Positions 1,132 to 63,354 of a DNA stretch of 64,000 bases are shown here, in pieces; position 1 is the first letter of the stretch, and every line of letters begins with the position of its first letter. Both the position numbers and the translations under genes were made by a program. Location of the stretch: the NCBI GenBank assembly GCA_016193485.1, contig JACPRZ010000043.1:96944-160943 (forward strand). Reading direction: 5' to 3'. The notes under the pieces were generated by a model. That model was not told where the DNA came from. It did no database searches and worked only from the letters and a program-made list of their open reading frames with translations. The DNA comes from Bacteroidota bacterium (GTDB taxonomy: Bacteria > Bacteroidota > Bacteroidia > JACPRZ01).

Positions 1132-1250
1132 TATAAATCGTGTAGCCGGTTAACTTACGACCATTGCCATTGTGAATCTCCAATTCAGGCGACTTCAACT
1201 CTTTGGAGAATATGTCAATTTGTATTTGTTTCATTTGCCTTGTGCTAATT

Positions 1251-1342
1251 ATATACTGATGCTGAATGATTTTGTGCTGACGCTTGGATACGGCATTCTG
1301 ACATTTATCGTCAGAACAAATCATTCAGGTCAGTATAGTATG
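1251..1342. repeat. nested palindromic element: outer hairpin ctgaatgatt/aatcattcag with an inner insert carrying gacatttatcgtc
   Basis: Inverted repeat ctgaatgatt (1262-1271) and aatcattcag (1319-1328); inner palindrome ctgacatttatcgtcag (1298-1314). A simple version of the outer hairpin recurs at 9341-9389. Confidence 0.6.
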
Positions 1343-1382
1343 CAAATATAAAATCTTTATTTTAATTACTTCTGCAGCAAAC

Positions 1383-23954: not shown

Positions 23955-24010
23955 TGAATAGCGAAATTACGAAAATATAGGGCAGTCGGGCACAGAAGAG
24001 GGCGGAATGG

Positions 24011-24166
24011 CCTGCCTGCCGGCAGGCAAGGGCTACATTCCCATTGATCAGGTGTGAATTTTTTTGTTTTCCTGATCTGATGAAGTCCGATACTAGTCCT
24101 GACGTTTACGATCAGGATGCAGACATTTATCGTCTGCATCAGATTCATCGGACCGGCAGGCAGGGA
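24011..24166. repeat. complex palindromic region (cctgcctgccggcaggcaagg; nested insert with gatgcagacatttatcgtctgcatc; tail tcatcggaccggcaggcaggga)
   Basis: Shares gtccgatact(a/c)gtc and tcatcggaccgg(c/t)aggcaggga with 37746-37806, and the gacatttatcgtc core with 1298-1314. Confidence 0.6.
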
Positions 24167-24224
24167 TAAATGATTGCCTATGCTGCTGGAAAAAATACAA
24201 ATGTGATTACAAATGTGTTGGGGT

Positions 24225-26465
24225 TTAACCGATAATTTTCTGCACCAGATTGTCTATGTTTTTCAATTCAGATGCAAGATTGTTTTTAATGGCAACCCGC
24301 AATAGACCTAAGTAAATTGCAGTTAGTTCTTTTTGCGGTGGGTTGTTCTTTAAATATTTTGCCGTTTTGTCGTGTGCCTCTTTGCTAAGTTTTGCCAAAC
24401 GCAAATGTGTTTCATTTTCTTTGTCAAACTTTGGGTAATACATGTCAAGAATTTTTTTATGAACATCTCTTGCACCGAATAAACCTTTTGTCTGGAAATC
24501 TTTCATTAAAAGGTTTGGGGAAGTTGCATTGAGAATAGCAGTCAGATAATATGCTTCGTTTGAACTGTTGGTAACAAATGAATATCCTTTGCTTTCAACA
24601 ATAAATTCCAAATCAAAGTCCTTTCTTTTTACTACAGTTGCGTTTGCATTTTTTGCAGAAGAATTGTAGATCACTAAATAAGGCGCGTTAATATGTTGTT
24701 CAGTTAATCCTCTTTGAAAATCAAGACGGTCATTGCTTGACATGTTTTTTGATTTTGCAGTTTTTTGCAAATCCCAAATTCTTTCAGCATTTTTAAACCA
24801 TTTTGAAGCATGTAAATATCCTTCGCTTCTTAATTCATCTGCCAAGTAGATTTTGATTTCCTTTTTATTTTCATTTTGATTATATTCAACGGTAATAGGA
24901 AGAACAACTAAATCGGGTTTGAATAACGCAAAAGGTAAAATACTTTTTGATAGTGCGGTGCGGAAAAGAAAACGGCTTTCAATTTGACCAGTGAAATCAA
25001 GTCCCTTCCAAGGTTTTTTTGCGACTGCCTGAATGGAATCAGAAGTTTTTATGTTAATAATTCTACCTTCCCAATCAGGCGGATATTCTTGTGTGAGTTG
25101 AATAAAATAAAATGTGCGCGGGACAATAGTAGCGCCTTGTTTGAATAATTTTTTATATGGATTTATGTTGGTTTGTTTCTTTGATTTACGCGGTGAAAAT
25201 GCTGATGACTTTCCCTGTTTTACATAAAACCAATTTTCACTTTTTTCAACAAGATTCGGCATTGCTGATTTAAGATTGCAATTGTGTGAAGGTACATTTC
25301 CACTGAAGCTTATTCCACCGATACCGGTAGCAGGCAATGATTTTTTCCCGTTTGTTTTTTCAGCAAATAAGACACCGCTCGGAATACGGAATAAAGGGGC
25401 GACTTTATTTAAATCCCAAATATTTGTAAGGCGAAATCCTTTTGCTTTTCCGCTTCTCGTATTATCGTGATGGTCTGCGCTGAAAAAACTACGCGGTAAA
25501 ACAAAAGCAATTTTCCCGCTATCATTTAAAAAATAATTGGCACAATGGGATAAAAATATTGCGGCAATTTCAAGGTGCGGGAAGTTTGCTTTTTTGTCGG
25601 GTTTTACAAGATAGATTTCAGCAAGTTTATTTAGTATGTTCTGATATTCTTCGTTCCTGATTGAACTGTATGTGAACCAGGGAGGATTGCCTATGATGTA
25701 ATCAAATTTTCCATGCAAAAAATAGGGTTTGTAAATATTTTGCAAAATGAATTTCCAAATGCTGTCTCTGCCTTTTTCTTTTACAGATTTCAAGCCAAGA
25801 TATATTTTGTAAAATCCATTTGTAATATTGCCATTAAATCCGTTCTTCGGGAATTTTTTACATAAAATATTTTCAAAAGTTTTTTCATCTTCGGCTTTGG
25901 TATGCAATGTTTGATCTGCCAATTCTTCGCACAATTCCAAACCCTCATCAAATAATTCAATTTCTTCCAACACTTGTGTATTGAGTAAAAATACTTCTTT
26001 GTCAATTTTTAATTTGAATTCGCTGCCGAATAAACTTCCAACTCCATCGGGGGCTAATAGCGTGTTTGCAAGGATAATATTTATGTGAATAGGTTTTTTA
26101 GATTTTACAATTTCTTTTCCCAATGAAAGAAGCATTGTTGTTTTTGCAATCTGTACGGAAAGGGGATGAATGTCTATTCCGAAAATATGTTCATTGAGTT
26201 GTTCGGCAGAAGTCCCCGGATGATTTTTTTTTATCCGGTGAATGGCAGCGCGGAGAAACGAACCGCTTCCGCAAGCAGGGTCAAGGATTTTGTCAGTGGG
26301 TTTAAAATTGAATTCTTTTACAATTCTTTCGCATAACCAGTCGGGCGTATAATACTCGCCTAATGCGTGGCGCGTGTCCAAATCAATTAATTCCTGGTAA
26401 CCAGAAGAAAAAATCGTTGTCAACAAAATTGCGGATGTTGTATTTATGAAAAACAGTGCCGTCAA
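24225..26465 (-). CDS. N6-adenine DNA methyltransferase domain plus putative target-recognition region of a Type IIG (MmeI-like) restriction-modification enzyme; C-terminal part of a split gene
   Basis: SAM-binding motif ILDPACGSGSFL and catalytic motif YIIGNPPWFTYS (gamma-class N6-adenine MTase); about 450 aa C-terminal extension; overlaps the upstream ORF by 83 bp in another frame. Confidence 0.75.
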   Translation of the reverse strand: MTALFFINTTSAILLTTIFSSGYQELIDLDTRHALGEYYTPDWLCERIVKEFNFKPTDKILDPACGSGSFLRAAIHRIKKNHPGTSAEQLNEHIFGIDIHPLSVQIAKTTMLLSLGKEIVKSKKPIHINIILANTLLAPDGVGSLFGSEFKLKIDKEVFLLNTQVLEEIELFDEGLELCEELADQTLHTKAEDEKTFENILCKKFPKNGFNGNITNGFYKIYLGLKSVKEKGRDSIWKFILQNIYKPYFLHGKFDYIIGNPPWFTYSSIRNEEYQNILNKLAEIYLVKPDKKANFPHLEIAAIFLSHCANYFLNDSGKIAFVLPRSFFSADHHDNTRSGKAKGFRLTNIWDLNKVAPLFRIPSGVLFAEKTNGKKSLPATGIGGISFSGNVPSHNCNLKSAMPNLVEKSENWFYVKQGKSSAFSPRKSKKQTNINPYKKLFKQGATIVPRTFYFIQLTQEYPPDWEGRIINIKTSDSIQAVAKKPWKGLDFTGQIESRFLFRTALSKSILPFALFKPDLVVLPITVEYNQNENKKEIKIYLADELRSEGYLHASKWFKNAERIWDLQKTAKSKNMSSNDRLDFQRGLTEQHINAPYLVIYNSSAKNANATVVKRKDFDLEFIVESKGYSFVTNSSNEAYYLTAILNATSPNLLMKDFQTKGLFGARDVHKKILDMYYPKFDKENETHLRLAKLSKEAHDKTAKYLKNNPPQKELTAIYLGLLRVAIKNNLASELKNIDNLVQKIIG

Positions 26466-27288
26466 TGATTCCTTTCATTTCGTCATCGCTAATATAATCA
26501 TCATTGCTGACCACCGTATATGCCAACATTTTTGAAAAGACAGAAAGATAGGTATGAATAAGAAAATTATTTTCGCTTGCGTCATAAGAACCGTAAGCAA
26601 TGCTCAAAAACTTTTCCCATTGCGCATAAGAAACCTGAATCTCACCGTATTTTTTTACATCCCGGAAATGGTTTGACATTTCACGATAACAATCAATGAA
26701 AATACCGCTTTGATAGCCGAATGATTCTTCAATTCTCTTGAGGGTCGCTTTTTGTTTTTCTTCTTTGAAAAGAAATCTGTCAATCCAGAAATAAAAATCG
26801 TCTGCGTTATTTTCTGACAGGGTGAAAGAAGCAGAGGCGATTTCGTTCAATTTTAATTTATCTTCCGTGAGTTCTTCCAGTATATCAATTTGTGAAATGT
26901 CGGGAGCAAAAACTTTCCAATTGATAAAGTCGGAAGCAATTAGGGTGTAGTTGTAACCTTCGCCTGAATTAACCTGGCCTAAAAGATAACCCGCCAGTTG
27001 TTCTTTGGCGTGTTTCAAAGTAAATTTCAGGTCGTTTTCAAATTCAATAATGATTTTATTATAAAGGGTGTCGGCACTACCCTTGTGCATTTTGTCCTTT
27101 CGGGGAATATTCAGGACCGTTTTTTCAGCACCGCTTGTAATTTTGTCAATTATTTTTTTTATCTCTTCTTCACCGGAATATAATCGGTTGAGCAGGTCTT
27201 TGAATAATTCTTTTTTGGCGAGTTCTTTATTGGCAGTTTTTATCTTTTGCCGGTATATTTCAATCAGTTCGTTTCTGTTTTGGTCCAT
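26383..27288 (-). CDS. N-terminal (nuclease-like) domain of the Type IIG-like enzyme, separated from the methyltransferase domain by a frameshift
   Basis: 301-aa ORF ending inside the start of 24225-26465; its tail ...NDFFFWLPGIN* joins the downstream frame ...SGYQELID by a 1-nt shift near a T6 run. Confidence 0.55.
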   Translation of the reverse strand: MDQNRNELIEIYRQKIKTANKELAKKELFKDLLNRLYSGEEEIKKIIDKITSGAEKTVLNIPRKDKMHKGSADTLYNKIIIEFENDLKFTLKHAKEQLAGYLLGQVNSGEGYNYTLIASDFINWKVFAPDISQIDILEELTEDKLKLNEIASASFTLSENNADDFYFWIDRFLFKEEKQKATLKRIEESFGYQSGIFIDCYREMSNHFRDVKKYGEIQVSYAQWEKFLSIAYGSYDASENNFLIHTYLSVFSKMLAYTVVSNDDYISDDEMKGIIDGTVFHKYNIRNFVDNDFFFWLPGIN

Positions 27289-27365
27289 TGTAAATTATCT
27301 CTTTAAAACATTGTAAAAATACCATTTATTCCTGTTTGGCGGTTGCGGGCGTAACTGCCGATGAT

Positions 27366-27446
27366 CTGGAGGGAGGTGACATTGAGGGATTTGATGTAGG
27401 GGATTGAGGGGATGAGGGAATGAGGAATTAATAACATGAGGGAATT
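27366..27446. promoter_or_regulatory. purine-rich tgaggga-type short repeats upstream of the Type IIG-like gene
   Basis: ggagggagg, ttgagggat, ttgagggga, atgagggaa, tgaggaatt, atgagggaat within 80 bp; a similar ttgagggagg and G-rich tract recurs at 29680-29840. Confidence 0.35.
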
Positions 27447-27565
27447 AAAGGATCAGAAGGGAACAAGAAAAGATATTTATTGGCATAGAGTTGGTAATTT
27501 TCGTTATGGAAAAAGAAAAGGGATAGTGGAGGATTACGATACAAAGAAAGATTAGGTAAATGGCT

Positions 27566-28282
27566 TTAGTTTGTTAACGTGTGAATCAACAATCTTGCTT
27601 CCGGAATTTCTTTATAGACATTATTAATATTATCTTCGGTTAAATATGTATTAATTGTTTTGAATAACTTACCACTTCTAAATGCTTCAGGAATGGATTC
27701 AGTATCATACACCTTTTTTTTTAATTGAGGGGTTGGGTGCAAATATCTAATATTCTCTTTTGAAATATCAAATATGCAGGATGCGACAAGTATTTCTGAA
27801 CTTGGGAATAATATTAGTGGAATGAAATATGGCAATATTTCGTAATTATAACCTTGTTTAACCATTTCTTCGTAGAATTTTTCAATTGAAAAATAAATTA
27901 ATCTATTAATACTATAAGCCCATTCAGTGAAGTAATTTGAGCGGTCTTTCAGAAGTTTTTCCGTATCAGAATTGATAATTATTATTTCTTTATTTGAAAT
28001 TGCAGAATTTACCCTTAAAGTTTTTTGGTAACAAGCATAATAAATAGCAATCAAATCTTTTAATAATTTATTGGAATCATCAGAAGTAAATGAGTAATTG
28101 GATGAATTTGAAGTGTTATGCAGATATCTTGATAAAGAATTAAAAATATTCAATTGATCCAGGTCAATAAAGCAATTATCGGGTAATTCCTCCTTCCGGT
28201 GTTTTTTAAAAATGGATTGTAAAAATTTTCGGATAACATAAAAGTCACTTAGCCCGTCACGAAGTATTGCAATATTTCGCAT
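27566..28282 (-). CDS. small partner protein of the upstream ATPase; possible RloB/TOPRIM-like effector (unassigned)
   Basis: Start 3 nt after the ATPase stop; N-terminus MRNIAILRDGLSDFYV (hydrophobic strand then D-G-x-S-D) resembles the start of RloB/DUF4276-type partners; later IIIINSDTEKLL acidic patch; AT-rich. Confidence 0.5.
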   Translation of the reverse strand: MRNIAILRDGLSDFYVIRKFLQSIFKKHRKEELPDNCFIDLDQLNIFNSLSRYLHNTSNSSNYSFTSDDSNKLLKDLIAIYYACYQKTLRVNSAISNKEIIIINSDTEKLLKDRSNYFTEWAYSINRLIYFSIEKFYEEMVKQGYNYEILPYFIPLILFPSSEILVASCIFDISKENIRYLHPTPQLKKKVYDTESIPEAFRSGKLFKTINTYLTEDNINNVYKEIPEARLLIHTLTN

Positions 28283-28285
28283 AAA

Positions 28286-29581
28286 TTAAATTTCACCTAA
28301 AACACCATTATAGAAAAGTTCAACTAAATCGAATGGTTTAATAGCAATTATTTTTTTATTATTCACTGTAATTTCCTCACCCTCAACAGTACCCATATTG
28401 ACAAGGGGTTTAATTGCGTCATTTAAGTTTGTAACAAGTGTAATAAAATCTTTTTCTTTCAAATGGAAATTATAAACGGAATCGGGCCGTTGTGAGAATT
28501 CCCGAATTACGGATGGGCTGTGGCTGGTAAAAATAAACTGTGTTTTTTTTGAATTATCAGATGTATCTCTTAACCAATTAAGAAATTCATGAAGATTTTT
28601 TTGATTTATACCATTTTCTATTTCTTCAATCATAATCAATGCGGGAGGTTTGCGAATAGAGCAAAGGAGGGCAATTGCTGCAGCTCTAACTAACCCATCA
28701 GATATTTTATCAGGGTCATAGTAAGGGAAGTTTGAACCACCCATATCAAATTGCCATTTTAAACCATTTTCCTTTAAAACGAAGTTATTGAAATTTTTAA
28801 CGAACCTTTTAAGGTAACCAATAAATCGACTAAAAGTTTCTTGATCCTGCTCTTTAATAAAACAGAGTAATTCCAGAAGGTTTCCCCCTTCCTTACCGAT
28901 TGCGCTTGGTGGATATGGAAAGACATTATTTGTTTTAAAATTACCTAAAAAATCTTTTTTATAACTCGGTACTAGTTTACCTCTAATATAGGAGCCGGAA
29001 AATGCATCTCCTTTTAAAAAGGACGGTTGAAAATTATAATAATAAAAAGTTGCAAGATCGTGGAAAAATAAATTAACTATTTCTTTTTCCCGGAAATGGT
29101 TATTAGATTCATATATTTTTTTTCTTAAAAGTAATTTGGAAGAATTTATATCAAAGCCATTTTCAAATGTTATGTTATTATCAGGAAATAAAAGGGTTAA
29201 TTTCTCGGTGCTTAAAATTAAGCGATCATCTTTTATATTAGGAAAAATTGAGAGGTTATATTCTATATTGTAATTATCTTTACTCCATATGCATCGAAAA
29301 CTAATTGGTTCACCAATTTTGCACATTGAATGTTTATTTGAATTGTATTCGTATGAACGAAGGTCAGAGAAATAATATTCATCTTGACTTTCATGATCAG
29401 TTTCATGAATTGGTTCTTTAACAGGATTATATCGACTTATCAATCTAGAAAAAAAATGCAGACCCCTAAGGAAATTACTTTTACCAGAGTTATTAGAGCC
29501 GATAATTAAAGACAAATCAATGGGTTCAATGGCAGTACATTTATGGGTTCTGTAATTTTTTAGTTCTAATAATTTAAACAT
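28286..29581 (-). CDS. ABC-type (AAA_15/AAA_21, OLD/SMC-like) ATPase, defence-associated family
   Basis: Walker A LIIGSNNSGKSN near N-terminus; D-loop/Walker B ALIMIEEIENGI; H-loop FIFTSHSP; 431 aa; AT-rich. Confidence 0.75.
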   Translation of the reverse strand: MFKLLELKNYRTHKCTAIEPIDLSLIIGSNNSGKSNFLRGLHFFSRLISRYNPVKEPIHETDHESQDEYYFSDLRSYEYNSNKHSMCKIGEPISFRCIWSKDNYNIEYNLSIFPNIKDDRLILSTEKLTLLFPDNNITFENGFDINSSKLLLRKKIYESNNHFREKEIVNLFFHDLATFYYYNFQPSFLKGDAFSGSYIRGKLVPSYKKDFLGNFKTNNVFPYPPSAIGKEGGNLLELLCFIKEQDQETFSRFIGYLKRFVKNFNNFVLKENGLKWQFDMGGSNFPYYDPDKISDGLVRAAAIALLCSIRKPPALIMIEEIENGINQKNLHEFLNWLRDTSDNSKKTQFIFTSHSPSVIREFSQRPDSVYNFHLKEKDFITLVTNLNDAIKPLVNMGTVEGEEITVNNKKIIAIKPFDLVELFYNGVLGEI

Positions 29582-29861
29582 AAGAATAATATTGAGCAGT
29601 TGTTAATTTGGCGGATTTGCAAGTTTTTTTTCGAACCATTAGCGAGCAACAAAGGTAGAAATTCTTCGGGAATGATAAGGTAGTCTTCGGGATTGGGAAT
29701 GTGAAATATTTTTGATGTTGATGTTTAGTCCTGGTCGGGACCGTTGAGGGAGGCAGCCCACCCTGCCCCTTCAAAGGGGGGGGAAGTCGCGAAGGGATGG
29801 AGATAGGCGGGTGAGGTTTGTCGGGTGGAAACACACGATTGCACAAGGGAAGCATTATTCT

Positions 29862-32800
29862 TCACTTCGCCATCTGTTCCCGTGCCGTGGCGGTCTGCAT
29901 GTAGCGTGCTTGCAGTTTTTTGAACCGTTCGTCCAAATCCTTATTGAGTTCTTCCTGCTTGTAGATTTTTGTTACGGTGGATAATCGTCCCATGATGGAC
30001 ATTGAGCGCTGCATATCTTCGGCAATATGCGCTTCATATTCCCCGCCTACCGTAAAATAATAATCAAGATCATCTTCGCATACTTCGGCAAGGCGTTTTA
30101 TGATCGGGTTTGCCTTATCGTGTTTTCCTGCGCGGTAATACGCTTCGGCAATGGGCAGAATAAGGAAGTTATAGGGGACGGTTTTTTCAGGCACCACTTC
30201 CATACATTTATCCAGCACGGCAACGGCAGAGTCCTTTTTTCCCTCCATGATCAGCGCATTGGCAAGGCGGGCGAAATTATTGCGGAAGTTCATGGTCATG
30301 CGCGAAATATTTTCATCAAGCGAAAAACCGGGATGCGTCAGGTTACCCCATTTGAATTTGTTCATCAGGTTATCGTACATGATATCGGTAGCAACCCTCC
30401 CGGTTTGTCCGTCAGGGCTTTCATTGCGGATCGGAACGAGGCGGTAGGCAAGCCCTTCCAACTGGAAATAGGGCTCTAACTGAAGATATGCTTCGGAGCC
30501 GACAGTGATGGCAAAATAAACAGGACGTTTCCATTCGTTATGCGCAATCAGGTCAAGCACCATCAGGTCATTTTTCATAAGGTAGTTCTGCCTGACGGTC
30601 CACTCTATTGAAGTAACTATTTTTCCTGTATCCTGCGGTTGCACATTTCCTCTTGTCAGCATTTTGTTCAGGGATTGTCCCGGCTTTTGCGGTTCTCCCA
30701 TCATTTGTGTTTGCACATTTTCAAGGACTTTCTTTTTATCAACAGGCAGGCGGAATGACTTGGACGGATAGTAGTTGATCAGTTTACCGCTGACGGTCTG
30801 CAGTTTCGCCTGCGGGTCATCTGATCCGATGAAACTCATCAGGTCTTTGAGGTCAACCGGACCTTTGAGTTTACGGTCATAAAAGGGTGCAAAATCACGG
30901 GTGCCCTGGCGGTATCGGTCAGGGGAAAGCGTAAACGGCACAGGGTCCGAATCATAAGCCTTCCGTCTCATCTGGTCGATGTACCAGTCAGTATTAAGCA
31001 AACTCAAATTGACCACGCGCACATCGGTTCGCACGCCCTCAACTTCCTGTACGTACCAGAGGGGGAAGGTATCGTTATCGCCATTGGTGAATAAAATCGC
31101 ATTCGGTGCGCATGATTCAAGGTAATTGGCGGCAAAGTCGCGTGCCGTGTAACGCATGGAACGGTCATGGTCATCCCAACCCTCTTTTGCCATTATAGCA
31201 GGAACCGGGCTGCAGATGATTGTTGCAATTACCGGAACCATTACCGGCACAATTTTTATTTTTGATGATATCCATTCGGCAATTGCCATCACACCGAGAC
31301 CAATCCATATTGCAAAAGCGTAAAATGATCCCACGTAAGCGTAATCACGTTCACGCGGCTGGTAGGGATACTGGTTCAGGTAAACTACAATGGCTAGCCC
31401 GGTCATAATAAAAAGAATAAGAACTACAAAGGCACCCTTGTTTTCGCTCCGGAAATGATATATGAGACCGATAAGGCCAAGTATGAGAGGAAGAAGGTAA
31501 AACCTGTTACGGGCTTTACTATTTGCTAAACTTTCAGGAAGGTTCTCCTGGGGACCTGCCTGCATTTTGTCAATAAAAGGGATACCGCATATCCAGTTGC
31601 CTTCGGTGGGTCCGCCATGGCCCTGTATGTCATTCTGCCGTCCGGCAAAATTCCACATAAAATAGCGGAAGTACATCCATCCTACCTGGTATTTGAAAAA
31701 GAATTTGAGGTTCTGGCCGGATGTGGGTTTTTTGTCTTTCGGCCCGCTTATTTCACCCCATGTTTTATATGCGCTTATATGGGAGCCCTGGTCGCTCCAC
31801 ATCCTTGGAAGGACAGTGCAATATTCAGGATCATAATTAGGGATTGAACCCTTGCGGTCGTCTGTTACAACGTATATTCCTTTTTCTTTATCGGGAGCAT
31901 AAACAGGTGAACCGTCCTTGTAGGGATCGGACGGGTCAAGCGGAGCATTAAAATGTTGCCCGTATAATAATGGACGGTCGCCATATTGTTCACGGCCGAG
32001 GTAGGCGAGCAAACTGAACATGTTCTCGGGATTATTTTCATCCATCGGGGGGTTTGAAAGGGATCGGATCACGGTCACGGCAAAGGTGGAGTACCCGATG
32101 ACAATCACTGTAAAACAAAGAATGGCTGTATTGACGACCGGGTGATTTTTTTTTCTTGACCAGTGAAGGCCCCAGATGACAAGCGCTATGAGGAGAAGGA
32201 TATAAAAAATTATTCCACTGTTAAACGGAAGCCCGAATGAATTTACGAAAAGCAATTCAAATTTGGAAGCAAGAATTATCACACCCTGGATAACACCAAC
32301 CTGGATAGTACCGAGAAGAATCATAGAGATAAGTCCCGTAATAATGATCCCGTTCCGTGTTACCGGAAATTTTTTGAAATAATAGACAAATGCAATAGCC
32401 GGGAGAGCGGTGAGGTTCAGCAGGTGCACACCCACGGAAAGTCCGCACAGGTAGGCGATGAGCACCAGCCAGCGGTCGGCATATTTTTCTTCGGCAACAT
32501 TTTCCCATTTGAGGATAGCCCAGAAGACAACTGCCGTAAAAAGCGAAGAAAGCGCATATACTTCTCCTTCCACTGCCGAGAACCAGAACGAATCGCTGAA
32601 GGTGTATGCCAGCGAACCGATAATACCGCTTCCGATGACGGAAGGAATTTTTTCGCCTGGGATCTCAGCGCCATTGCGGCTGATGATTTTTTTTGCCAGT
32701 GCGGTTATGGTCCAGAAAAGAAAGAGAATGGTAAAGGCGCTGGCAATTGCCGATAACGTATTTATGCACAGTGCAACAAGAGTTTTGTCGGCAGCAAAAA

Positions 32801-39695: not shown

Positions 39696-41339
39696 ATGAG
39701 AACATTTTTACTCCTGCAAAGGTATCGGGATATTCCTTATTCCCTGTACATTATTCCTTTTATTTTTTTCATCTTCTGTCCGTACCTTTTTTCGCAGGGT
39801 ATTTACAACAACGGTGCGTACATTGTGATCCAGACAGGCGCTTATGTTTATATTGACGGAGACGGCAGTGGCGACTACCGCAATGAAACAAGTACCTCAA
39901 ACGGCTCCATTGACCTTGACGGGGAACTCATTCTTGAGGGCGACTGGACCAATAATGCAACTGGCGGTAACGTCTTTATCAACATTGAAGGCGCTCCTGA
40001 CGGGTGGACAAGATTCAAAGGAACTACCAACCAGACCATAGGCGGGACAAGAGATACTTACTTTGAAAAATTTGAAGTTAATAATACGGCTGCGGGAACA
40101 TCGGTTACCCTGAACCGTGATGTCAATGTCTTTGGCTCCTGCGCCATGACAGACGGAGTGATATCCACAGGAGCAAATTATTTCATTCTGAGAAGTACAA
40201 CCGCAGCAGATCTCTCCGGTTTCAGCAGCGGCAGTTTTGTATATGGAAACCTGAGGCGCTATATTGCTTCCAACACCAGCACTTATGATTTTCCGGTGGG
40301 CAGCAATAATGCTTCAACAAATTATTACCGCAGTGATTTTATCAACGGTAACCTGACCGGTGTATCTTACCTTACCGCTTCGGTCGGCATCCTGGCGGAA
40401 GGAGGTAATAATGTGGATGCAAGAGTTATCAGCAATCCTAATGCTTTTGAGGGTGGGCAGCAATACCAGAATGTTGTAGGCCCGGCTGCCGGCCAGGCGA
40501 CAGAATGGACTTTTATTCCTGATGCCCCAGTCGGAACCGGCAACTATAACTTGAACCTTTATGTAGCCAATATTAGCGAACTATCGGCAGCAGATGATGA
40601 TAAATTCAATATTTTAAAACGACCTGACGGGTCATCGGATTATAACGACTGGGATGCCCTGGATGCAACCACATCCATACCGGCCAATGGCGGTGCCGGC
40701 AGAATATACAGCGCAGGTGCCGGTTATGCGCAGAAGAACGGCTTTACCTCATTCTCCAAATTCGTCATTGCCAAGGCGGACAATCCGCTTCCCGTTGAAT
40801 TACTCTATTTTTCCGGAGTATGCGAGGGGGGGGTGGTAAAATTATCATGGGCGACTGCATCCGAAACAAATTCGGATTATTTTACGGTTGAGAAAAGTGA
40901 AGACGGCATTACTTTCCGGCCCATTGGAGAAATTCCGGCACAGGGAAACAGCCATTCAGTGGTTTTATATAATTATTCAGATGCTGTATTGCCTGAAAAC
41001 GTATCGTATTACATCCTGAAACAAACCGACATTGACGGTAAAACCGAACAATTTGCAACCATAGCGGTTGATGCTTGCGCTGAAACAACCACTGGCGATG
41101 AAATCAATGCCTGGTCCGCTGGTGACGGATTTATCGTGATACGGATTATTAAAAATTCTGGCGGTGAAGAAAATTACCCTGTCACCCTTTTTGATATGGT
41201 TGCAAGGGAGGTCTTATCCGCTGCCATTCATGTTGATGAAGGCGCAAATCATGCGGTGCTTAACACCGGAAATCTTGCACCTGCCTTGTATATTCTCAAT
41301 GTCAATAATTCATATAAACGGAAGTTGGCGCTTTATTAA
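39696..41339 (+). CDS. secreted repeat protein sharing a beta-sandwich module with the 47324-51808 adhesin; divergent T9SS-like C-terminus
   Basis: Signal/anchor; segment PLPVELLYFSGVCEGGVVKLSWATASETNSDYFTVEKS...YYILKQTDIDGK is paralogous to 51210-51540 of the giant adhesin. Confidence 0.6.
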   Translation: MRTFLLLQRYRDIPYSLYIIPFIFFIFCPYLFSQGIYNNGAYIVIQTGAYVYIDGDGSGDYRNETSTSNGSIDLDGELILEGDWTNNATGGNVFINIEGAPDGWTRFKGTTNQTIGGTRDTYFEKFEVNNTAAGTSVTLNRDVNVFGSCAMTDGVISTGANYFILRSTTAADLSGFSSGSFVYGNLRRYIASNTSTYDFPVGSNNASTNYYRSDFINGNLTGVSYLTASVGILAEGGNNVDARVISNPNAFEGGQQYQNVVGPAAGQATEWTFIPDAPVGTGNYNLNLYVANISELSAADDDKFNILKRPDGSSDYNDWDALDATTSIPANGGAGRIYSAGAGYAQKNGFTSFSKFVIAKADNPLPVELLYFSGVCEGGVVKLSWATASETNSDYFTVEKSEDGITFRPIGEIPAQGNSHSVVLYNYSDAVLPENVSYYILKQTDIDGKTEQFATIAVDACAETTTGDEINAWSAGDGFIVIRIIKNSGGEENYPVTLFDMVAREVLSAAIHVDEGANHAVLNTGNLAPALYILNVNNSYKRKLALY

Positions 41340-41341
41340 AT

Positions 41342-42151
41342 ATGAGCAAACCGGTTTTTAATATCAAAATCACATCGCCTGATGCAATGACAGCGGAAGT
41401 GCCTGCGCTTTTTGACTCAGGCGCATATTATACATTAATAAGGGAAGATAAATTGCCTTCAAAAAATTTTTTAATTTACAAAGTGCCGGAAATATTGGAC
41501 ACCGCAACAAAAGGAGGCGCACTCAAAGTAATTGGTTCATTAGAAATAATTATTGAACACCTGGATAAAAAAATAAAGACGCTCGCATTAGTGTCGCCCG
41601 ATATGACAAGGGAAATGATAGTGGGTGCCATAACCATGCAGGAATGGGATATTGTAATAAAAAATAAAAACGGAAGCGCCAAAGTAAATATCGGCAGGGA
41701 TATGCGCGACCCGGAAATTACGGAAGTTTGTTATGTCAGGGAGATTATTACCCCTGAAAATCTGCTTCATGAAGCCGTTTCCCTGCAGTTATTCCTGACA
41801 TATTGTGCCGAATGCGAAGATGATATTGATTACAAGATAAAACTGATTTCATTTATTGAACGCGCCAAACAAATTCATGCACTGCTGAAAGAACAATACA
41901 AAATAAAAAAAGAAAAACAGCCGGCAATTGAAGAAATTCGCGCTTTTTATGATAAGAATTGGCCCGGCTATATGAGACGCGGCTATAATTCCCTTTCGCA
42001 TGCTTTCGGTATTTTCGGCTGGTTGGGCGGAGATATGGAAGGCGGACCTCCCGTTGAAAAATATACTTTATCAATAATGGAAATGCTCAGGCACGACATA
42101 TTATCTCTCTTGCATGAATGGCAAAATAAAAAACGTCATCTGAAAAAATAG
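41342..42151 (+). CDS. retropepsin-like (clan AA) aspartic protease domain protein with unknown C-terminal domain
   Basis: N-terminal VPALFDSGAYYTLI (hydrophobic-hydrophobic-D-S-G-A active-site loop) and IVGAITMQEWDIVI closing strand; about 150-aa extra C-terminal domain. Confidence 0.6.
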   Translation: MSKPVFNIKITSPDAMTAEVPALFDSGAYYTLIREDKLPSKNFLIYKVPEILDTATKGGALKVIGSLEIIIEHLDKKIKTLALVSPDMTREMIVGAITMQEWDIVIKNKNGSAKVNIGRDMRDPEITEVCYVREIITPENLLHEAVSLQLFLTYCAECEDDIDYKIKLISFIERAKQIHALLKEQYKIKKEKQPAIEEIRAFYDKNWPGYMRRGYNSLSHAFGIFGWLGGDMEGGPPVEKYTLSIMEMLRHDILSLLHEWQNKKRHLKK

Positions 42152-42185
42152 TTATTGTAGAATTTTAAACAACATCAGTTTAAAA

Positions 42186-42791
42186 ATGAGGACGCAAAAC
42201 ATAAGGATAGACCCGAACTGGGTAAATAAAAATAAAGACATAGTAGAGAAATATGCCGGCAAATGGATAGCCATTAACCCGGAAAAAGGAATTATCGGAT
42301 TTAGCGATTCCATAAAAAAATTATCAGAACAATGCGATGCATTAAACATTCCGTATATTTTTTATCATGTTCCTTTATATTCTGGTGTTTTAAGATTTAT
42401 CCCCATTTATTTTAAAAGTGCGGTTACCAATAACTGGCGCCCTGTTTATCCTGCTCAACTCCGCAATAATAAAAATATAATAAAAGGATTTTTCTTAATA
42501 GACAGTGGCGCTGATTCCTCATTGATCAGCAAAGAAGCCGGAAAGCAACTCGGTTTTATCAAACAAACAGACGATGCCGTTTTAACTGCCTTTGGAATTG
42601 GGGGAACAGTTGAATACATATTGAAAATGGTTGATTGCACCATTGACGGACATACGCTCAAAATACCGGTTGCATGGATACAAACCGATGATATAGATGA
42701 TATGATAATAGGCAGAGATGTTGTTTTTGATTATTTTGATATTGAATTTAAACAAAAGACAAAAAAAATAGTTTTTAAACCTGTAAAATAA
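42186..42791 (+). CDS. two-domain protein: small N-terminal domain plus C-terminal retropepsin-like aspartic protease
   Basis: C-terminal FFLIDSGADSSLIS (D-S-G-A) and IIGRDVVFDYFDIEF; N-terminal 90 aa (KYAGKWIAINPEKGIIGFSDSIKKL) resembles small antitoxin-like DUF5678-type domains (uncertain). Confidence 0.6.
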   Translation: MRTQNIRIDPNWVNKNKDIVEKYAGKWIAINPEKGIIGFSDSIKKLSEQCDALNIPYIFYHVPLYSGVLRFIPIYFKSAVTNNWRPVYPAQLRNNKNIIKGFFLIDSGADSSLISKEAGKQLGFIKQTDDAVLTAFGIGGTVEYILKMVDCTIDGHTLKIPVAWIQTDDIDDMIIGRDVVFDYFDIEFKQKTKKIVFKPVK

Positions 42792-42868
42792 ACCACAGAC
42801 AAGAGCAAACGAAAATCAGAAGCAACCAAAAAAGTTTTCATACAGATAAACAAAATATCCCCAAACCC

Positions 42869-45082
42869 ATGAAAAAAATATTATTTTCATGCGCAGTTGT
42901 TCTTTGCGCTCTCACCGCAAGGGCGCAGAATGTTGGAGTGAATACCGATGGCACCGCACCTACAGAACTCCTGCATGTTAAAAGCAACCAGGCAACTGAT
43001 AACACGTTGCTATTAGAGCACACCAATGGCGCGCAGGAATTAGCGCTTCGCTTCCTTACTCCGACTGCAAGCGCTGACTGGAAATTATATATTCCCGCAT
43101 CCTCTTCCAACCTGCGGCTGTACAATACTGCCGACAGGGTTACTTTTCTCTCTACCGGAACAGTGCAATTTAATGCATACACCACTAACGGCATTGTGCG
43201 CACTACTGGCGGAACAGGAACTCTATCAAGCACCGGGGGCGCAATAAGTTTAACAACAGAAGTTACAGGAACTTTGCCCGTTGGCAATGGTGGTACGGGC
43301 CTTACTGCAATTCCCCTAGGTATTCTCAGAGGCGATGGCGCTTCTGCAATTACTGGTACCACAGGTACGCAATATGGTGTTCCTTATTGGGCTACCACCA
43401 GCACACTCGGTTCTACTGCTGCCGGTACAACCACAACTCTATTGCACGGCAATGCAGCCGGAGCGCCAACTTTTGGCGCAGTAAGTTTAACAGCAGATGT
43501 TACAGGTGTTTTGCCCTTTGCCAATGGTGGAACGAATGCAAACTTAACTGCAGTAAACGGAGGTATGATTTGGAGCAATGCATCGCAAATGCAGATTACG
43601 CCTGTGGGTACTGCCGGACAATTTCTGCAGAGCAATGGAGCAGCCGCTCCTACATGGGCAACAGGAGGGCTGCTCAGCGGTGGAACGGCTAATTATAATA
43701 CTTATTGGACAGGAGCAACTACTGTCGGAGCGGAGCAATATGTTGCCATAAGCCGTGGAGGAACAAATATCGGAACCATCGGTGCAATTGGCTCTGTAAT
43801 ATATTCCAACGGAACACAGCATGCTTCAACTGCGGTAGGTACGGCAGGACAGGTATTAATATCAAACGGAGGCGCAGCGCCAACCTTTGGCGCTGTACCG
43901 GGTGGAGGGAATAACTGGGGAATATTAGGCAATGCAGGAACGGCTGTTGCCACAAACTTCGTTGGAACTACCGATGCTGTTGCACTTGCATTCAGAACTA
44001 ATAATACTGAAAAAATGAGAATACAATCTGCTGATGGAGAAGTAATTATTGGAGCTGTTGCTTCTCCATATGCGGGAGATTTGCTTTCTGGTAGAGGTAC
44101 TGCAGCACTTCCATTTGCCGTAAATGGATATACTGACCAAAATGGTTCTGGTACTTGGGGTGAAGTTCTCGGAGGGGCGACCAATTTTTCCGCTATTCAA
44201 GGTGTGTATAGTGGAACCGGAGTTGGAGCAGGAGCTTTAGGCAACTACAATGGAACCAATACGGCTAACACGCGTGCAGGAGTTGTTGGGGTAATGTCCA
44301 CACCTGCTGCTACTAACAATGGAACTGGGGTTTTGGGAAATCATACTACAGCATCAGGTAATGCCCATATGGGAGTTTTAGGAATTTATGCCGGCACCTC
44401 TTATGGTATAGGTGCTTATGGTATTGGATTTGGTGGGGGTATTGTTGCAGGAAATTTTGATTTTGGAGTAGTGGGATGGAGAGCAAATAATGCAAATTAT
44501 AGTGGATATTATAACGGGAACCATGTTATTGCTAATGGAACTAAAACTGCCAGCGTTGGTACAAGCAAAGGAAATCAGCTTCTTTATTGTATGGAGAGCA
44601 CTGAAATTTGGTTTGAAGATGTAGGAAGGGCTAAATTAACAAATGGTTATATTGAAGTTAAATTAGATGAATTATTTTTAGAAACTGTATTTATAGACGA
44701 TACACATCCTATGCATATATTTGTTCAGGAAGAAGGGGAGTCAAATGGCTTAATAGTGATTCCCGGCAAAGATGGTTTTATTGTGAGAGAAAAAAACAAC
44801 GGAACATCAAACATCAGTTTTTCATACAGAATAATGGCTAAACGGCTTAATTTTCAAGACCACCGATTTGGTAATGATCCGGTCTGGGGTTCCGGTGATA
44901 CTCGAAAGTATTCACAGTATGCGCCTCCTCCTCCAGTAGATTATTATGAAAATGTAAAATTTCAGGAAGACAAAAAGAAAAATTGGAAACCTACACCTAT
45001 GCCTGAAGGATTTGTAGATTATCTTACACTTATGCGTGAACTCGGAGAAAAAAAGGTTACAAAGGATAATCCAACAAAATAA
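42869..45082 (+). CDS. secreted Gly/Thr/Ala-rich repeat protein with phage tail-fibre-like repeats
   Basis: Signal peptide; recurring units ISLTTEVTGTLPVGNGGTGLTA / VSLTADVTGVLPFANGGTNANLTA and AAPTFGAV / AAPTWATG; no T9SS tail recognised. Confidence 0.55.
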   Translation: MKKILFSCAVVLCALTARAQNVGVNTDGTAPTELLHVKSNQATDNTLLLEHTNGAQELALRFLTPTASADWKLYIPASSSNLRLYNTADRVTFLSTGTVQFNAYTTNGIVRTTGGTGTLSSTGGAISLTTEVTGTLPVGNGGTGLTAIPLGILRGDGASAITGTTGTQYGVPYWATTSTLGSTAAGTTTTLLHGNAAGAPTFGAVSLTADVTGVLPFANGGTNANLTAVNGGMIWSNASQMQITPVGTAGQFLQSNGAAAPTWATGGLLSGGTANYNTYWTGATTVGAEQYVAISRGGTNIGTIGAIGSVIYSNGTQHASTAVGTAGQVLISNGGAAPTFGAVPGGGNNWGILGNAGTAVATNFVGTTDAVALAFRTNNTEKMRIQSADGEVIIGAVASPYAGDLLSGRGTAALPFAVNGYTDQNGSGTWGEVLGGATNFSAIQGVYSGTGVGAGALGNYNGTNTANTRAGVVGVMSTPAATNNGTGVLGNHTTASGNAHMGVLGIYAGTSYGIGAYGIGFGGGIVAGNFDFGVVGWRANNANYSGYYNGNHVIANGTKTASVGTSKGNQLLYCMESTEIWFEDVGRAKLTNGYIEVKLDELFLETVFIDDTHPMHIFVQEEGESNGLIVIPGKDGFIVREKNNGTSNISFSYRIMAKRLNFQDHRFGNDPVWGSGDTRKYSQYAPPPPVDYYENVKFQEDKKKNWKPTPMPEGFVDYLTLMRELGEKKVTKDNPTK

Positions 45083-45194: not shown

Positions 45195-45446
45195 ATGAAA
45201 CTATCTGATCATGCAAAAAACAAACTTGAAATATACAATATAAATGAGGATGAAGTTATCAGCAAATGCAACAAGCAGATTTATGAATTTTACGATACAA
45301 AGGAGGAGTCGCACATAAAAATAATTGAACTGCAGGAAATACTTTTTGCAGTAGTTTATAACAATAAAGCGCAAATGATAGTAACGGTGTACAGAACAGA
45401 CCGAAGAACAATAAACAACAGGCAAAAAAATAAAAGATGGATTTAA
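45195..45446 (+). CDS. DUF4258-like small toxin-like protein
   Basis: 83 aa; LSDHAKNKLEIYNINEDEV...MIVTVYRTD pattern resembles DUF4258; overlaps the next ORF by 10 nt. Confidence 0.45.
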   Translation: MKLSDHAKNKLEIYNINEDEVISKCNKQIYEFYDTKEESHIKIIELQEILFAVVYNNKAQMIVTVYRTDRRTINNRQKNKRWI

Positions 45447-45661
45447 AACTTAAATACGGAACATTTAAAAAGCGTGTTGACAGCGAAACCGGCAGCATCC
45501 TTTTTTACAGAGATGATATTAAAGGGCTGCCTGATAAGGTTTATCAGGGGGATGGATTTACTGTTGAAGTAAAAAACAGCCAAATATATCTCATTGACAT
45601 TTTTAATGCCGAAAAAGTACTGAACAACTTGCTGAAAAGCGTAAAAAAAGAAGTTGCGTAA
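45437..45661 (+). CDS. DUF2283-like small antitoxin-like protein
   Basis: 74 aa; ...GDGFTVEVKNSQIYLIDIFNAEKVL resembles the DUF2283 C-terminal beta hairpin; translationally coupled to the preceding ORF. Confidence 0.45.
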   Translation: MDLKLKYGTFKKRVDSETGSILFYRDDIKGLPDKVYQGDGFTVEVKNSQIYLIDIFNAEKVLNNLLKSVKKEVA

Positions 45662-60922: not shown

Positions 60923-61527
60923 AACTGGAACAGTACGGAATAACCCTTTCAAGAATTACATCCGATGATATTGAATTGGTGAGAAACATGAGAAATGCAC
61001 CGCACGTCAGAAGCACAATGGCTTACCGGAGGTATATTACGAAATCAATGCAAAAAAAGTGGTTTGAACGTGTAAATAATCCGCTGAATTATTATTTGCT
61101 CATCTCGTATCGGAATGAAAAAATCGGAGTTATCAACATTAAAAATATCCGCTTGGATGAAAAATGGGGCGAAGGAGGTATTTTTATTCATGAAAAAAAT
61201 TACTGGAACACTCCTGTTCCGGTGTTGGCTTCACTGTGCCTGCTGAATTTTATTTTTTTTCAGTTAAAAATAACCGATAAATCATTCATAAAAATTTTAA
61301 AAGATAATTTGCCTTCCATCCGTTACAATAAAATACTTGGCTATGTTTTGGTCCCTTATCAGGAAAAAAAGAAGAATCAGCTCTATGTGCTCACTAAAGA
61401 TGCGTACATTGAAAAAACCGAAAAACTCCGTAAAGCCGCAACCATCTTTTCTGGTGATACTGAATTACCGAGATTAACCGGGGTAAAAAGTCCGTTGAAT
61501 CTTGAACAAATGAACATCATGCTTTAA
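60919..61527 (+). CDS. GNAT-like N-acetyltransferase (PseH-like), tentative
   Basis: LSRITSDDIELVRNMRNAPHVRSTM...WFERVNNPLNYYLLISYRNEKIGVINIKNI resembles the PseH/sugar N-acetyltransferase pattern; 4-nt overlap with the GT2 gene. Confidence 0.45.
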   Translation: MKLEQYGITLSRITSDDIELVRNMRNAPHVRSTMAYRRYITKSMQKKWFERVNNPLNYYLLISYRNEKIGVINIKNIRLDEKWGEGGIFIHEKNYWNTPVPVLASLCLLNFIFFQLKITDKSFIKILKDNLPSIRYNKILGYVLVPYQEKKKNQLYVLTKDAYIEKTEKLRKAATIFSGDTELPRLTGVKSPLNLEQMNIML

Positions 61528-61576
61528 AAATATCCTGACGTTCTACCCCTGGGGTATTTATTCACAAGTATAAATA

Positions 61577-62809
61577 TTACTTAAGCACATCTGCCAAACA
61601 CACAGGAATAAGTTTATTATCTTTTATTGTTACGTCAGGACAATTTAAACAATATTCAATTTCGCCATCATAAGTAACATTTGGCCCTTGCTGAAAGATC
61701 ATCGTTTTAAAATTCAGTGTAGAACCTGGTTTTAACAAGTTGGACAGAAATAATATTGTCTTCATTATTGTTAAAGGATTTAAACTGAACAATGCATACA
61801 ACAAACACTTGTAAAATATTTTTTTCTTGTTCCAGATAATATCAAAAGGATACTTTCCCGTTTTTTTTATATGCAACTGATTTCCAACTTTTGCAATATG
61901 TTTAAAATCAATATTCGTATGCAATAGTTTTGTTTTGCAATTTTTTAATTGGATAACAAATGTTAAATAAAATATCCATCTTTTCTCGGATATATTTTTA
62001 GTTGATGGGATATAACCATATGGTAATAAATTAAACTGATGATTTAAATATGCAATAACTTCTTCATTCAAAACAACTTCATTGTCTAAAATTGTAGGTA
62101 CAAGCCGGTTAGGCAGGATTGAGGATTTCGGGATATTGTTTGCAATTAATTCAAAATCCGTACAGCAGGTAACCAATAATGATTGATGCATTTTATTGTT
62201 AAAGAAGCAAGAAATAAATTCGCTAAAATTCGCCAAATCGCTTTTATACAAAGTTATTTCAAGTGCACACCGTATTCCGTTTTTAATAATCTTGTTTGAT
62301 ATATTTGTGCGTAATTCTATCAGATCCTTTCTGTCGAAATTTTCTTTCAAATCCGGTCTTTTTTGGTGCTCATCAATATGAAGAAAAATCTTATTTATTT
62401 TTGATTTTTTATACTCGGCAAGCTTTTTATCAGTTAATGCAAAACCGTTACTTAATACATCAACCAAAATCCCTTTATTTGAAATATATTTAATGACTTC
62501 TGATAATTCCGGGTGTAAAGTGGGTTCTCCGCCAGCAAGTGTTATCAAATGTAAATTTCTCTTTGTTATAATAAAATCAATTTCATTTTTGATGATTTCC
62601 AGAGGTTTTGTATAGTCAGATTGGTCTTTGTAACATGCTTTACAGGAGATATTGCATTTTTGATTTACTTCAATTACGGCATGAGGAATATTTTTCCCGC
62701 TAAATGGCATTTTATAGAGTTTATTTACTGCCACTGTATTTTTAATCTTAGGATTCATAATTATACAATAATAAAACAAACTTATTAATAACTTTATGAC
62801 ATAGGTCAT
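61577..62809 (-). CDS. radical SAM protein with Cys-rich C-terminal (SPASM/twitch-like) region
   Basis: CNISCKACY (CxxxCxxC) followed by a GGEP-type motif (LAGGEPTLHP); C-terminal cysteines (VTCC, EYCLNCPD...PVC); AT-rich. Confidence 0.7.
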   Translation of the reverse strand: MTYVIKLLISLFYYCIIMNPKIKNTVAVNKLYKMPFSGKNIPHAVIEVNQKCNISCKACYKDQSDYTKPLEIIKNEIDFIITKRNLHLITLAGGEPTLHPELSEVIKYISNKGILVDVLSNGFALTDKKLAEYKKSKINKIFLHIDEHQKRPDLKENFDRKDLIELRTNISNKIIKNGIRCALEITLYKSDLANFSEFISCFFNNKMHQSLLVTCCTDFELIANNIPKSSILPNRLVPTILDNEVVLNEEVIAYLNHQFNLLPYGYIPSTKNISEKRWIFYLTFVIQLKNCKTKLLHTNIDFKHIAKVGNQLHIKKTGKYPFDIIWNKKKIFYKCLLYALFSLNPLTIMKTILFLSNLLKPGSTLNFKTMIFQQGPNVTYDGEIEYCLNCPDVTIKDNKLIPVCLADVLK

Positions 62810-62893
62810 GTATTTTGAGTGCCTTTTTATTGAATTTTGGTTTTAAGTAAAATTTGTAGTAAACATTCATATTTTTGGGGGTAACTATATACA

Positions 62894-63343
62894 ATGGACG
62901 ACAATACTTTTAATACTGGAATTTACTTAGCTGAGAAAAGCTTTCAGAATATTTATAAAAAGCATAATTATTTTATGGAAAAGTATTTTAACCATTCCAT
63001 ACCAAAAAAAGGATTATCCACAGGGTTCATTCCATATAATATTGATTTTTCTAAATTAGCGCAACGGAATATTATTTTGACCGGGGATGCCGCTGGCCTT
63101 TGCGATAAAATGTTTGGTCATGGAGTTGATAATGCCATAATATCCGGATATCTTGCCATTGAAAGTATTTGTAATGCTGAAAATACAAATAACACATACC
63201 CGCTTAATGAAATTTACCGTTATAAATTAGGAAAGTATCTTAATAAATCACTTTCTTACGCTATAAAAACCTACGAAACTTTAAAGGAAAATAAAGTAAA
63301 TTATTTGGATTCATTGGAAGCGCTTATAAAACCAGGTGTCTAA
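62894..63343 (+). CDS. truncated FAD-dependent oxidoreductase (geranylgeranyl reductase/halogenase-like C-terminal fragment)
   Basis: IILTGDAAGLCDKMFGHGVDNAIISGYLA is the second FAD-binding motif of this family, but the N-terminal Rossmann part is missing (only 149 aa). Confidence 0.4.
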   Translation: MDDNTFNTGIYLAEKSFQNIYKKHNYFMEKYFNHSIPKKGLSTGFIPYNIDFSKLAQRNIILTGDAAGLCDKMFGHGVDNAIISGYLAIESICNAENTNNTYPLNEIYRYKLGKYLNKSLSYAIKTYETLKENKVNYLDSLEALIKPGV

Positions 63344-63354
63344 TTTGTTCTACT

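Follow-up and report, generated by a model that had tools for sequence, protein, structure and literature searches.

Two neighbouring genes of a Bacteroidota bacterium, here called open reading frame (ORF) A and ORF B, are probably independent retropepsin-like proteases of the accessory genome, which stem from two distant families and stand next to each other by chance. They are located in a stretch of 64,000 nucleotides (nt) of assembly GCA_016193485.1 (contig JACPRZ010000043.1, positions 96,944 to 160,943 of the forward strand), and this whole stretch is called the window in the following. An earlier reading, made from the letters of the window and here termed the sequence-only reading, had suggested that the two proteins could combine into one heterodimeric protease. 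We find that this part of the reading is not supported, as the two genes are not conserved together, while most of what it had described at the locus itself is borne out.

Both genes encode retropepsin-like domains

ORF A (269 amino acids, aa) and ORF B (201 aa) lie on the same strand, separated by 34 nt (Table 1). As the sequence-only reading had described, they are adjacent and co-directional, and each carries one D-S-G-A motif, located within ALFDSGAYYTLI in ORF A (aa 22-33; D25-S26-G27-A28) and within FLIDSGADSSLI in ORF B (aa 103-114; D106-A109). The assignment to the retropepsins is confirmed by the Pfam thresholds. ORF A matches RVP (PF00077) at aa 2-105 with 26.9 bits (cut-off 20.7), and ORF B matches Asp_protease_2 (PF13650) at aa 103-179 with 31.7 bits (cut-off 24.3). 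Both proteins have the single-lobe retropepsin beta-barrel fold, and the D-S-G-A motif forms the catalytic loop after a hydrophobic strand (ALF-D25-S-G-A in ORF A, FLI-D106-S-G-A in ORF B), in a column that is conserved in both families. A second motif of the clan (hydrophobic-hydrophobic-G-R-[DN], or I-L-G-x-D) is located on the helix that precedes the C-terminal strands. In ORF B it reads I-I-G176-R177-D, in which G and R are invariant; ORF A exhibits the variant V-G95-A-I-T-M-Q-E-W, and G95 is invariant across its family. With 27.2 bits for ORF B and 17.7 bits for ORF A, neither protein reaches the cut-off of NCBIfam TIGR03698 (57.35 bits). No signal peptide or membrane segment was seen in either protein upon inspection of the sequences.

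The two retropepsin domains show an identity of 19%, and hhalign relates them with a probability of 80%, aligning the DSG and IIG[AR] motifs. Judged from these alignments, the families of ORF A and ORF B are related only remotely. Each domain is attached to a different partner, in agreement with the sequence-only reading: ORF A has a C-terminal domain predicted to be all-helical, here called X, and ORF B an N-terminal DUF5678 domain (PF18929, aa 19-60, 29.1 bits, cut-off 23.2).

The two families were not found together at other loci

All locus counts for the ORF B family (B family) rest on 80 loci, which were kept from 122 relatives found in species-representative genomes. None of these 80 loci carries X or a gene of the type of the ORF A N-terminal domain (the N family), as searched by tblastn and by hidden Markov models for both halves of ORF A. 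The reverse survey covered about 36 places of the N family and of a second retropepsin type, Q, which were collected from contig look-ups and one metagenome scan; since the scan used a closer subset of the N family, its sample leans toward the AGTMQKW subfamily. None of the places contained X or a gene of the ORF B type. A second retropepsin is absent from approximately 31 of the 36 sampled N-family places, an upper bound like the other solitary counts, since many metagenomic loci comprise only 1-2 kilobases (kb) and neighbours may be missed; in related loci, moreover, ORFs were called only crudely. No conserved neighbour of N-family genes emerged from the roughly 36 places, and most of the N-family genes lie amid housekeeping genes.

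Both families are present in the metagenome-assembled genome (MAG) GCA_016213435.1, but on separate contigs. Contig JACRAL010000085 carries a relative of ORF B with 85% identity (L001, the same as L005), and contig JACRAL010000202 carries an N-family gene with 52% identity (L085). The nearest relatives of ORF B occur in two other contexts, both without ORF A. The sequence-only reading had itself named a lack of co-conservation as a finding that would speak against it, and this is what we observe; the other two, a missing retropepsin fold and a misplaced D-S-G-A segment, do not apply.

Both families are overwhelmingly solitary, and thus each must be able to function alone, which for a retropepsin means homodimerising. 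According to PMC12239564, retropepsins are homodimers whose interface holds the Asp dyad. We infer that both proteins are catalytically active and that each dimerises with itself, which would provide a two-Asp active site, and that the attached DUF5678 or X may tune or target its own protease. In this view, ORF B is a DUF5678-retropepsin protein complete in itself, ORF A arose by a lineage-specific stop loss or deletion which fused a 131-aa retropepsin gene to the following X gene, and the attached domains are no sign of a two-gene holoenzyme.

ORF B and the DUF5678-retropepsin family

A word-indexed search retrieved 58 homologues of ORF B of about 200 aa, most of which are annotated as DUF5678 plus Asp_protease_2. 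Invariant in their alignment are L104, D106, S107, A109, D110, G176, R177 and the C-terminal FDxFDIEFxQ, and the linker residues W84 and P86 are almost invariant. The family occurs in Bacteroidota (Saprospiraceae, Chitinophagales), many Cyanobacteria, Thiotrichaceae, Acidobacteriota and Ignavibacteria. Its catalytic Asp is retained in 78 of 79 full-length genomic copies, and the ratio of non-synonymous to synonymous substitution rates (dN/dS) of ORF B versus its closest relatives amounts to 0.14-0.25. Six of the 80 copies carry in-frame stops and are pseudogenes. In the copy of L022 (2389-3000), Asn replaces the catalytic Asp.

The closest relatives of ORF B, with 85% aa and 88% nt identity, are found in L005 and L006, both from groundwater Bacteroidetes MAGs. 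The nt identity runs from the ATG to the stop codon and the flanks are unrelated, which suggests that ORF B behaves as a one-gene unit. The segments of ORF-confined identity comprise 42167-42795 of the window, 5998-6610 of L005 and 383-1007 of L006, and no terminal repeats were seen. A protein of the type IX secretion system (T9SS) kind resembling that of the window is also located near ORF B in L005 and L006 (33-37% identity). We rejected this likeness as a sign of synteny among the three loci because it is confined to a common repeat domain.

The direct neighbours of ORF B relatives differ in size, strand and family, and a recurrent partner is not among them. In a Pfam scan of 150 neighbours, we mainly found genes of sugar-nucleotide and polysaccharide biosynthesis as well as Uma2; apart from Uma2, neither toxin-antitoxin nor defence genes are enriched. 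The viral search with ORF B gave a single weak match of 27% identity, and relatives of the N family were absent from 2.9 million viral contigs. Using tblastn, no match was obtained for ORF B in the phage collection, nor for ORF A and ORF B in the plasmid collection, and an origin from a phage or plasmid was rejected on the basis of these results.

In one 4.5-Mb genome, an ORF B-family gene lies between an Rrf2 regulator and sufB (L132, 5001-5594). Together with an N-family protein that carries an IscA/HesB-like extension (P0062, see below), this makes two loose links between retropepsins and Fe-S cluster assembly, one case each.

ORF A is a fusion of two usually separate proteins

When the complete ORF A was searched against 5.8 billion proteins, it matched only itself and, over its C-terminal half, one protein of 158 aa (P0060). 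The two halves behave differently in an exhaustive phmmer search of 1.84 billion representatives. Residues 1-129 yielded about 40 matches, nearly all of 125-135 aa, and residues 128-268 yielded only three, namely P0060 (76%), the fragment P0077 and P0082 (34%). By profile search, the N family comprises 105 members, almost all of exactly 131 aa with an MSKP start and a DPEITEVD end. The MAGs that carry them, from groundwater and sediment, belong to Planctomycetes, Nitrospirae, Deltaproteobacteria, Verrucomicrobia and Bacteroidetes. ORF A keeps all motifs of this family, including D25-S-G-A and IGAxTMQxW, and has no internal stop or frameshift.

The junction can be located in comparison with locus L002, where X is a stand-alone protein. 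ORF A reads DPEITEV and then CYVREIITPENLL, which corresponds to SPSV-YYVQEIVTPEQLL in X of L002 from residue ~19 onward, and the nt homology between ORF A and L002 begins at position 41725 of the window, at a shared AGTT. This alignment implies that a 131-aa retropepsin gene without its last codon and stop was joined to the next gene without its first ~18 codons. Protein searches found the full-length fusion in this genome only. The alignment establishes the junction, and ORF A is, as far as the compared sequences tell, a one-off in-frame fusion. Further singletons are known from the N family. In P0062 (269 aa), the retropepsin has a C-terminal extension that is IscA/HesB-like by eye, while N-terminal extensions are present in P0063 and P0071; N-family fusions of this sort appear to be sporadic.

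X has no match in Pfam, NCBIfam, PADLOC or PDB. AlphaFold 2 (AF2) predicts helices of low confidence, with a predicted local distance difference test (pLDDT) score of 30-65. The dN/dS of X versus L002 is 0.11, a value that mostly reflects history predating the fusion. Four loci of X are known (the window, L002, L127 and L128). L002 comprises a Q-type retropepsin gene, a gap of 12 nt, the X gene and then a retropepsin gene of another type, T, and in L127 X is solitary. The X of L128 (90-509) is frameshifted, and the adjoining protein combines, by eye, the N-terminus of a PLD-like nuclease with an unrelated OmpR-type C-terminus; this mixed neighbour suggests that the L128 contig may be chimeric.

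Retropepsin genes side by side at other loci

Retropepsin genes of different families are adjacent in about 10% of the N-family loci and in 2 of the 80 B-family loci. Several observations weigh against a meeting of ORF A and ORF B by mere chance. Adjacency of retropepsin genes exceeds the expectation from a few copies per genome. In L085, a 125-aa Q-type gene is separated by 10 nt from an N-family gene, and a third, Q-like copy follows 1.5 kb on. L090 and L091 contain tandem 131-aa N paralogues with 77% identity and a dN/dS of 0.14 (L090, 3053-3896), L104 contains a convergent N/T pair (2197-3009), and in the related cyanobacterial loci L016 and L022 a 139-aa T-type gene immediately precedes the gene of the ORF B type. 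Of the four loci known for X, two (the window and L002) likewise show it between retropepsin genes. In addition, the gap of 34 nt and the shared direction make it probable that ORF A and ORF B are co-transcribed.

At a greater distance, L108 and L116 have a T-type gene 1.5 kb from an N-family gene. The three retropepsin genes of L085 lie within 3 kb (483-3116), amid Uma2, Hjc-like and DUF5618 genes. From locus to locus the partners vary (Q+N, N+N, N/T, T+B, Q-X-T and N::X+B), and accessory clustering or local duplication therefore fits these cases better than a co-evolving heterodimer.

Alternative explanations

One alternative, which we regard as unlikely, treats small retropepsins and partners such as DUF5678 and X as a loose guild of toxin-antitoxin-like, defence or conflict modules, in which the partner would restrain or trigger the protease. 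ORF B would be a fused, self-inhibited version of such a two-gene module, and the clustering of several cassettes would be what is typically seen in islands. It draws on a two-gene form of the family, L129 (GCA_053495555.1, 2277-2872). There, a 75-aa DUF5678 gene (Pfam E-value 3e-13) and a 123-aa retropepsin gene overlap by 4 nt (ATGA) within a toxin-antitoxin island of PIN, BrnA, DUF4926, PemK and TIR genes, and the split immediately precedes the W-x-P motif that is conserved in the linker. The alternative also draws on PADLOC models of candidate defence systems: the ORF B protease matches PDC-M08B (E-value 3e-7) and PDC-M52B (1.5e-3), and the L129 protease matches PDC-M52B over nearly its full length (4e-8). 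The L129 pair and these matches keep the reading alive, with DUF5678 as a regulator of the protease. The ORF-exact conservation between unrelated flanks would fit a single gene that moves as a cassette, and the company of Uma2, Hjc-like and DUF5618 genes in L085, the VapC-like PIN genes beside the pair of L016 and the pairwise adjacencies Q-N (L085), Q-X (L002) and N::X (window) point in the same direction. In Sulfolobales, a small retropepsin is reported to adjoin type III CRISPR loci (PMC3973734).

This explanation is opposed by the neighbourhoods, which in the ORF B family are mostly devoted to polysaccharide biosynthesis with Uma2 as the only enrichment of the expected kind, and in the N family mostly to housekeeping; the non-defence surroundings of the ORF B family argue against generalising from L129. 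No PADLOC 'A' component matches DUF5678, X or the neighbours, so that only one of the two components called for was detected. The lack of plasmid and phage matches, next to one weak viral match, also speaks against this explanation. A small bicistronic operon with overlapping genes was seen in the L129 variant, while in the window and most relatives the two parts form one polypeptide. In three further copies (L077 ~6229, L027 ~6217, L063 ~6223), an in-frame stop (TAG, TGA and TAA, respectively) is placed at the linker Trp or one codon later. The position of these stops is the site where the L129 version splits into two genes.

Taken further, DUF5678-retropepsins would be single-chain toxin-antitoxin-like or defence modules in which DUF5678 restrains a cytoplasmic protease until a trigger arrives, and the N, Q, T and B retropepsins would form, together with X, an unrecognised guild of partner-swapping conflict cassettes, with the tandem genes of the window as one instance. 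We consider this extended version quite unlikely. Release from the restraint might then occur by self-cleavage in the linker LPIxFKxVxxHxWxPxY.

A second alternative concerns ORF A alone, which could be the decaying by-product of a deletion, impaired or non-functional, so that a working ORF B would lie beside a relic. In favour of decay, only one contig is known to carry the fusion, and the fusion removes the strictly conserved C-terminal Asp and the free C-terminus of the 131-aa family as well as ~18 N-terminal residues of X. Other one-off fusions of the N family exist, e.g., P0062 with its IscA-like domain, and the six pseudogenes among the 80 ORF B-family copies indicate that accessory genes of this kind do decay. 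We nevertheless hold a relic to be very unlikely, since the reading frame of ORF A is uninterrupted and the family motifs are intact; the low dN/dS of X is a further point against it, albeit one that mostly dates from before the fusion.

Finally, the obligate heterodimer, i.e., a dedicated two-gene system to which ORF A and ORF B would contribute one Asp each and which would possibly process the downstream repeat protein, is highly improbable: complete D-S-G-A loops on two retropepsin folds, the tandem arrangement and the recurrence of adjacent retropepsin pairs speak for it, but the pair is co-conserved nowhere in our sample, both families are mostly solitary and so active alone, the nearest ORF B relatives do without ORF A, the partners in recurring pairs change, the two domains share an identity of only 19%, and no conservation of the 737-aa candidate substrate is seen around relatives of ORF B.

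Surroundings of the pair in the window

The positions of all features are compiled in Table 1. The sequence-only reading had called the two genes AT-rich and placed them between T9SS adhesin genes, upstream of a tail-fibre-like repeat protein and a small toxin-antitoxin-like pair. Each of these statements holds in part. The GC content of ORF A (0.389) and ORF B (0.340) is below that of the whole window (0.421), but the difference is modest; it is compatible with acquired accessory genes, though unremarkable. Large T9SS cargo proteins do flank the locus on either side. The 547-aa protein directly upstream, whose stop is followed after 2 nt by the start of ORF A, reaches only a sub-threshold match to a sorting domain. 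Housekeeping genes are also located upstream of the pair (murA-like, lpxA-like, lpxC-fabZ, holA and skp/ompH).

Downstream, the 737-aa protein has a phage-tail-like C-terminal region (match to phrog_6616), but it is not conserved beside ORF B relatives, and L005 and L006 have no counterpart of it in the vicinity of ORF B. Neither a Pfam family nor a T9SS sorting domain was detected in it. By eye, the protein (42869-45082) has a signal-peptide-like N-terminus and Gly/Thr-rich repeats. The small ORFs of 83 and 74 aa do overlap and are a possible toxin-antitoxin-like pair, but the match of the 83-aa ORF to DUF4258, which spans the entire profile, is weak (E-value 0.035).

Between 39.3 and 46.2 kb, a scan for promoters and terminators gave counts no higher than in shuffled sequence, using a sigma-70 consensus that is unsuited to Bacteroidota. 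Elsewhere in the window, the GC content drops to 0.32-0.38 at 24000-30000 and to 0.29-0.32 at 61000-64000, compared with 0.42 overall, and these troughs may be other acquired segments.

Table 1. Positions of the two genes, their domains and neighbouring features in the window.
Feature	Position	Strand	Basis or remark
ORF A, in-frame retropepsin::X fusion	41342..42151	+	two halves match different, usually separate proteins (phmmer)
Retropepsin domain, ORF A aa 1-129	41342..41728	+	N family, ~131-aa stand-alone proteins (MSKP...FD[ST]G[SA]...IGAGTMQKWDI...DPEITEVD-stop)
Catalytic-loop codons, ORF A	41414..41425	+	aligned with family FD[ST]G[SA] column and, by hhalign, with the ORF B-family DSGA
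Fusion junction	41722..41740	+	DPEITEV then CYVREIITPENLL, matching SPSV then YYVQEIVTPEQLL in X of L002
Domain X, ORF A aa 130-269	41729..42151	+	predicted all-helical; no known family
ORF B, member of the DUF5678-retropepsin fusion family	42186..42791	+	58 homologues aligned
DUF5678 domain, ORF B aa 19-60	42240..42365	+	PF18929; AF2 alpha/beta unit, pLDDT 90-94
Linker, ORF B aa ~61-86	42366..42443	+	motif LPIxFKxVxxHxWxPxY; pLDDT 54-78
Retropepsin domain, ORF B aa ~85-201	42438..42788	+	
Catalytic-loop codons, ORF B	42501..42512	+	D106, S107, A109 invariant, G108 nearly so, in 58 homologues
547-aa protein	39696..41339	+	sub-threshold T9SS C-terminal sorting domain (Por_Secre_tail, E-value 0.0038); outside any conserved module
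737-aa secreted repeat protein	42869..45082	+	phage-tail-like C-terminal region (phrog_6616, E-value 6e-13, aa 543-667)
83-aa ORF and 74-aa ORF	45195..45446 and 45437..45661	+	10-nt overlap; GC 0.31 and 0.35

Significance and comparison with known systems

From a biological point of view, the locus in the window is an ordinary case, in part an accidental one, and the interest lies in the families rather than in this pair. Two sizeable families of cytoplasmic, retropepsin-like prokaryotic proteins emerge, the 131-aa proteins of the MSKP...DPEITEVD type and the DUF5678-fused proteins. Through the fusion and the operon with the 4-nt overlap, DUF5678 is tied to a protease, which provides a concrete handle on the function of this domain. 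The observation that divergent retropepsin genes are sometimes adjacent, including true tandem paralogues (L090), is relevant to the evolution of aspartic proteases. Had the heterodimer been upheld, it would have exemplified, in a living organism, the step with two separate genes that lies between retropepsin homodimers and the bilobed pepsins.

In line with the sequence-only reading, which knew of no described system of this arrangement, our literature search found no paper that describes one. Searches for DUF5678, for retropepsins with toxin-antitoxin systems and for PF13650 with defence islands returned nothing relevant beyond general work on bacterial retropepsins, and none of the papers searched mentions PDC-M08. 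The likeness to PDC-M08 and PDC-M52 is confined to the protease component B, and both are untested candidate systems.

Retroviral proteases (HIV-1, EIAV and RSV; MEROPS A2) and the retroviral-protease-like domain of Ddi1 share 14-24% identity with ORF A and ORF B. Their context, i.e., a polyprotein, a retroelement or a ubiquitin-like domain, is absent here, and the accessory domains DUF5678 and X are unrelated to Gag-Pol or to UBL/UBA domains. ORF A furthermore has IGAxTMQxW where these proteases have G-R-[DN]. Among bacterial retropepsin-like proteins, APRc of Rickettsia is described as membrane-embedded and RloA of Pseudomonas as secreted with a signal peptide, whereas ORF A and ORF B are neither, by inspection. 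RimB and RloA of Pseudomonas also belong to Pfam families other than those of ORF A and ORF B, and a rimK- or rlo-type operon is absent at the locus.

Type II toxin-antitoxin modules also exist in fused or bicistronic form, e.g., EzeT and CapRel-SJ46, and serve here as an analogy only. As in such modules, the small N-terminal domain of ORF B can also be encoded by a gene of its own, which lies upstream and overlaps the protease gene by 4 nt (L129), and the ORF B family is patchy in phylogeny, with occasional pseudogenes and a cassette-like conservation limited to the ORF. Unlike them, its neighbourhoods are not generally rich in toxin-antitoxin genes.

TIGR03698 (clan_AA_DTGF) comprises small stand-alone retropepsin-like proteins of ~110-140 aa in archaea and bacteria. 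This family is the best NCBIfam match of both ORFs, below its cut-off, and the T-type genes of L016, L022 and L002 resemble it by eye. Both proteins belong to known but functionally uncharacterised kinds.

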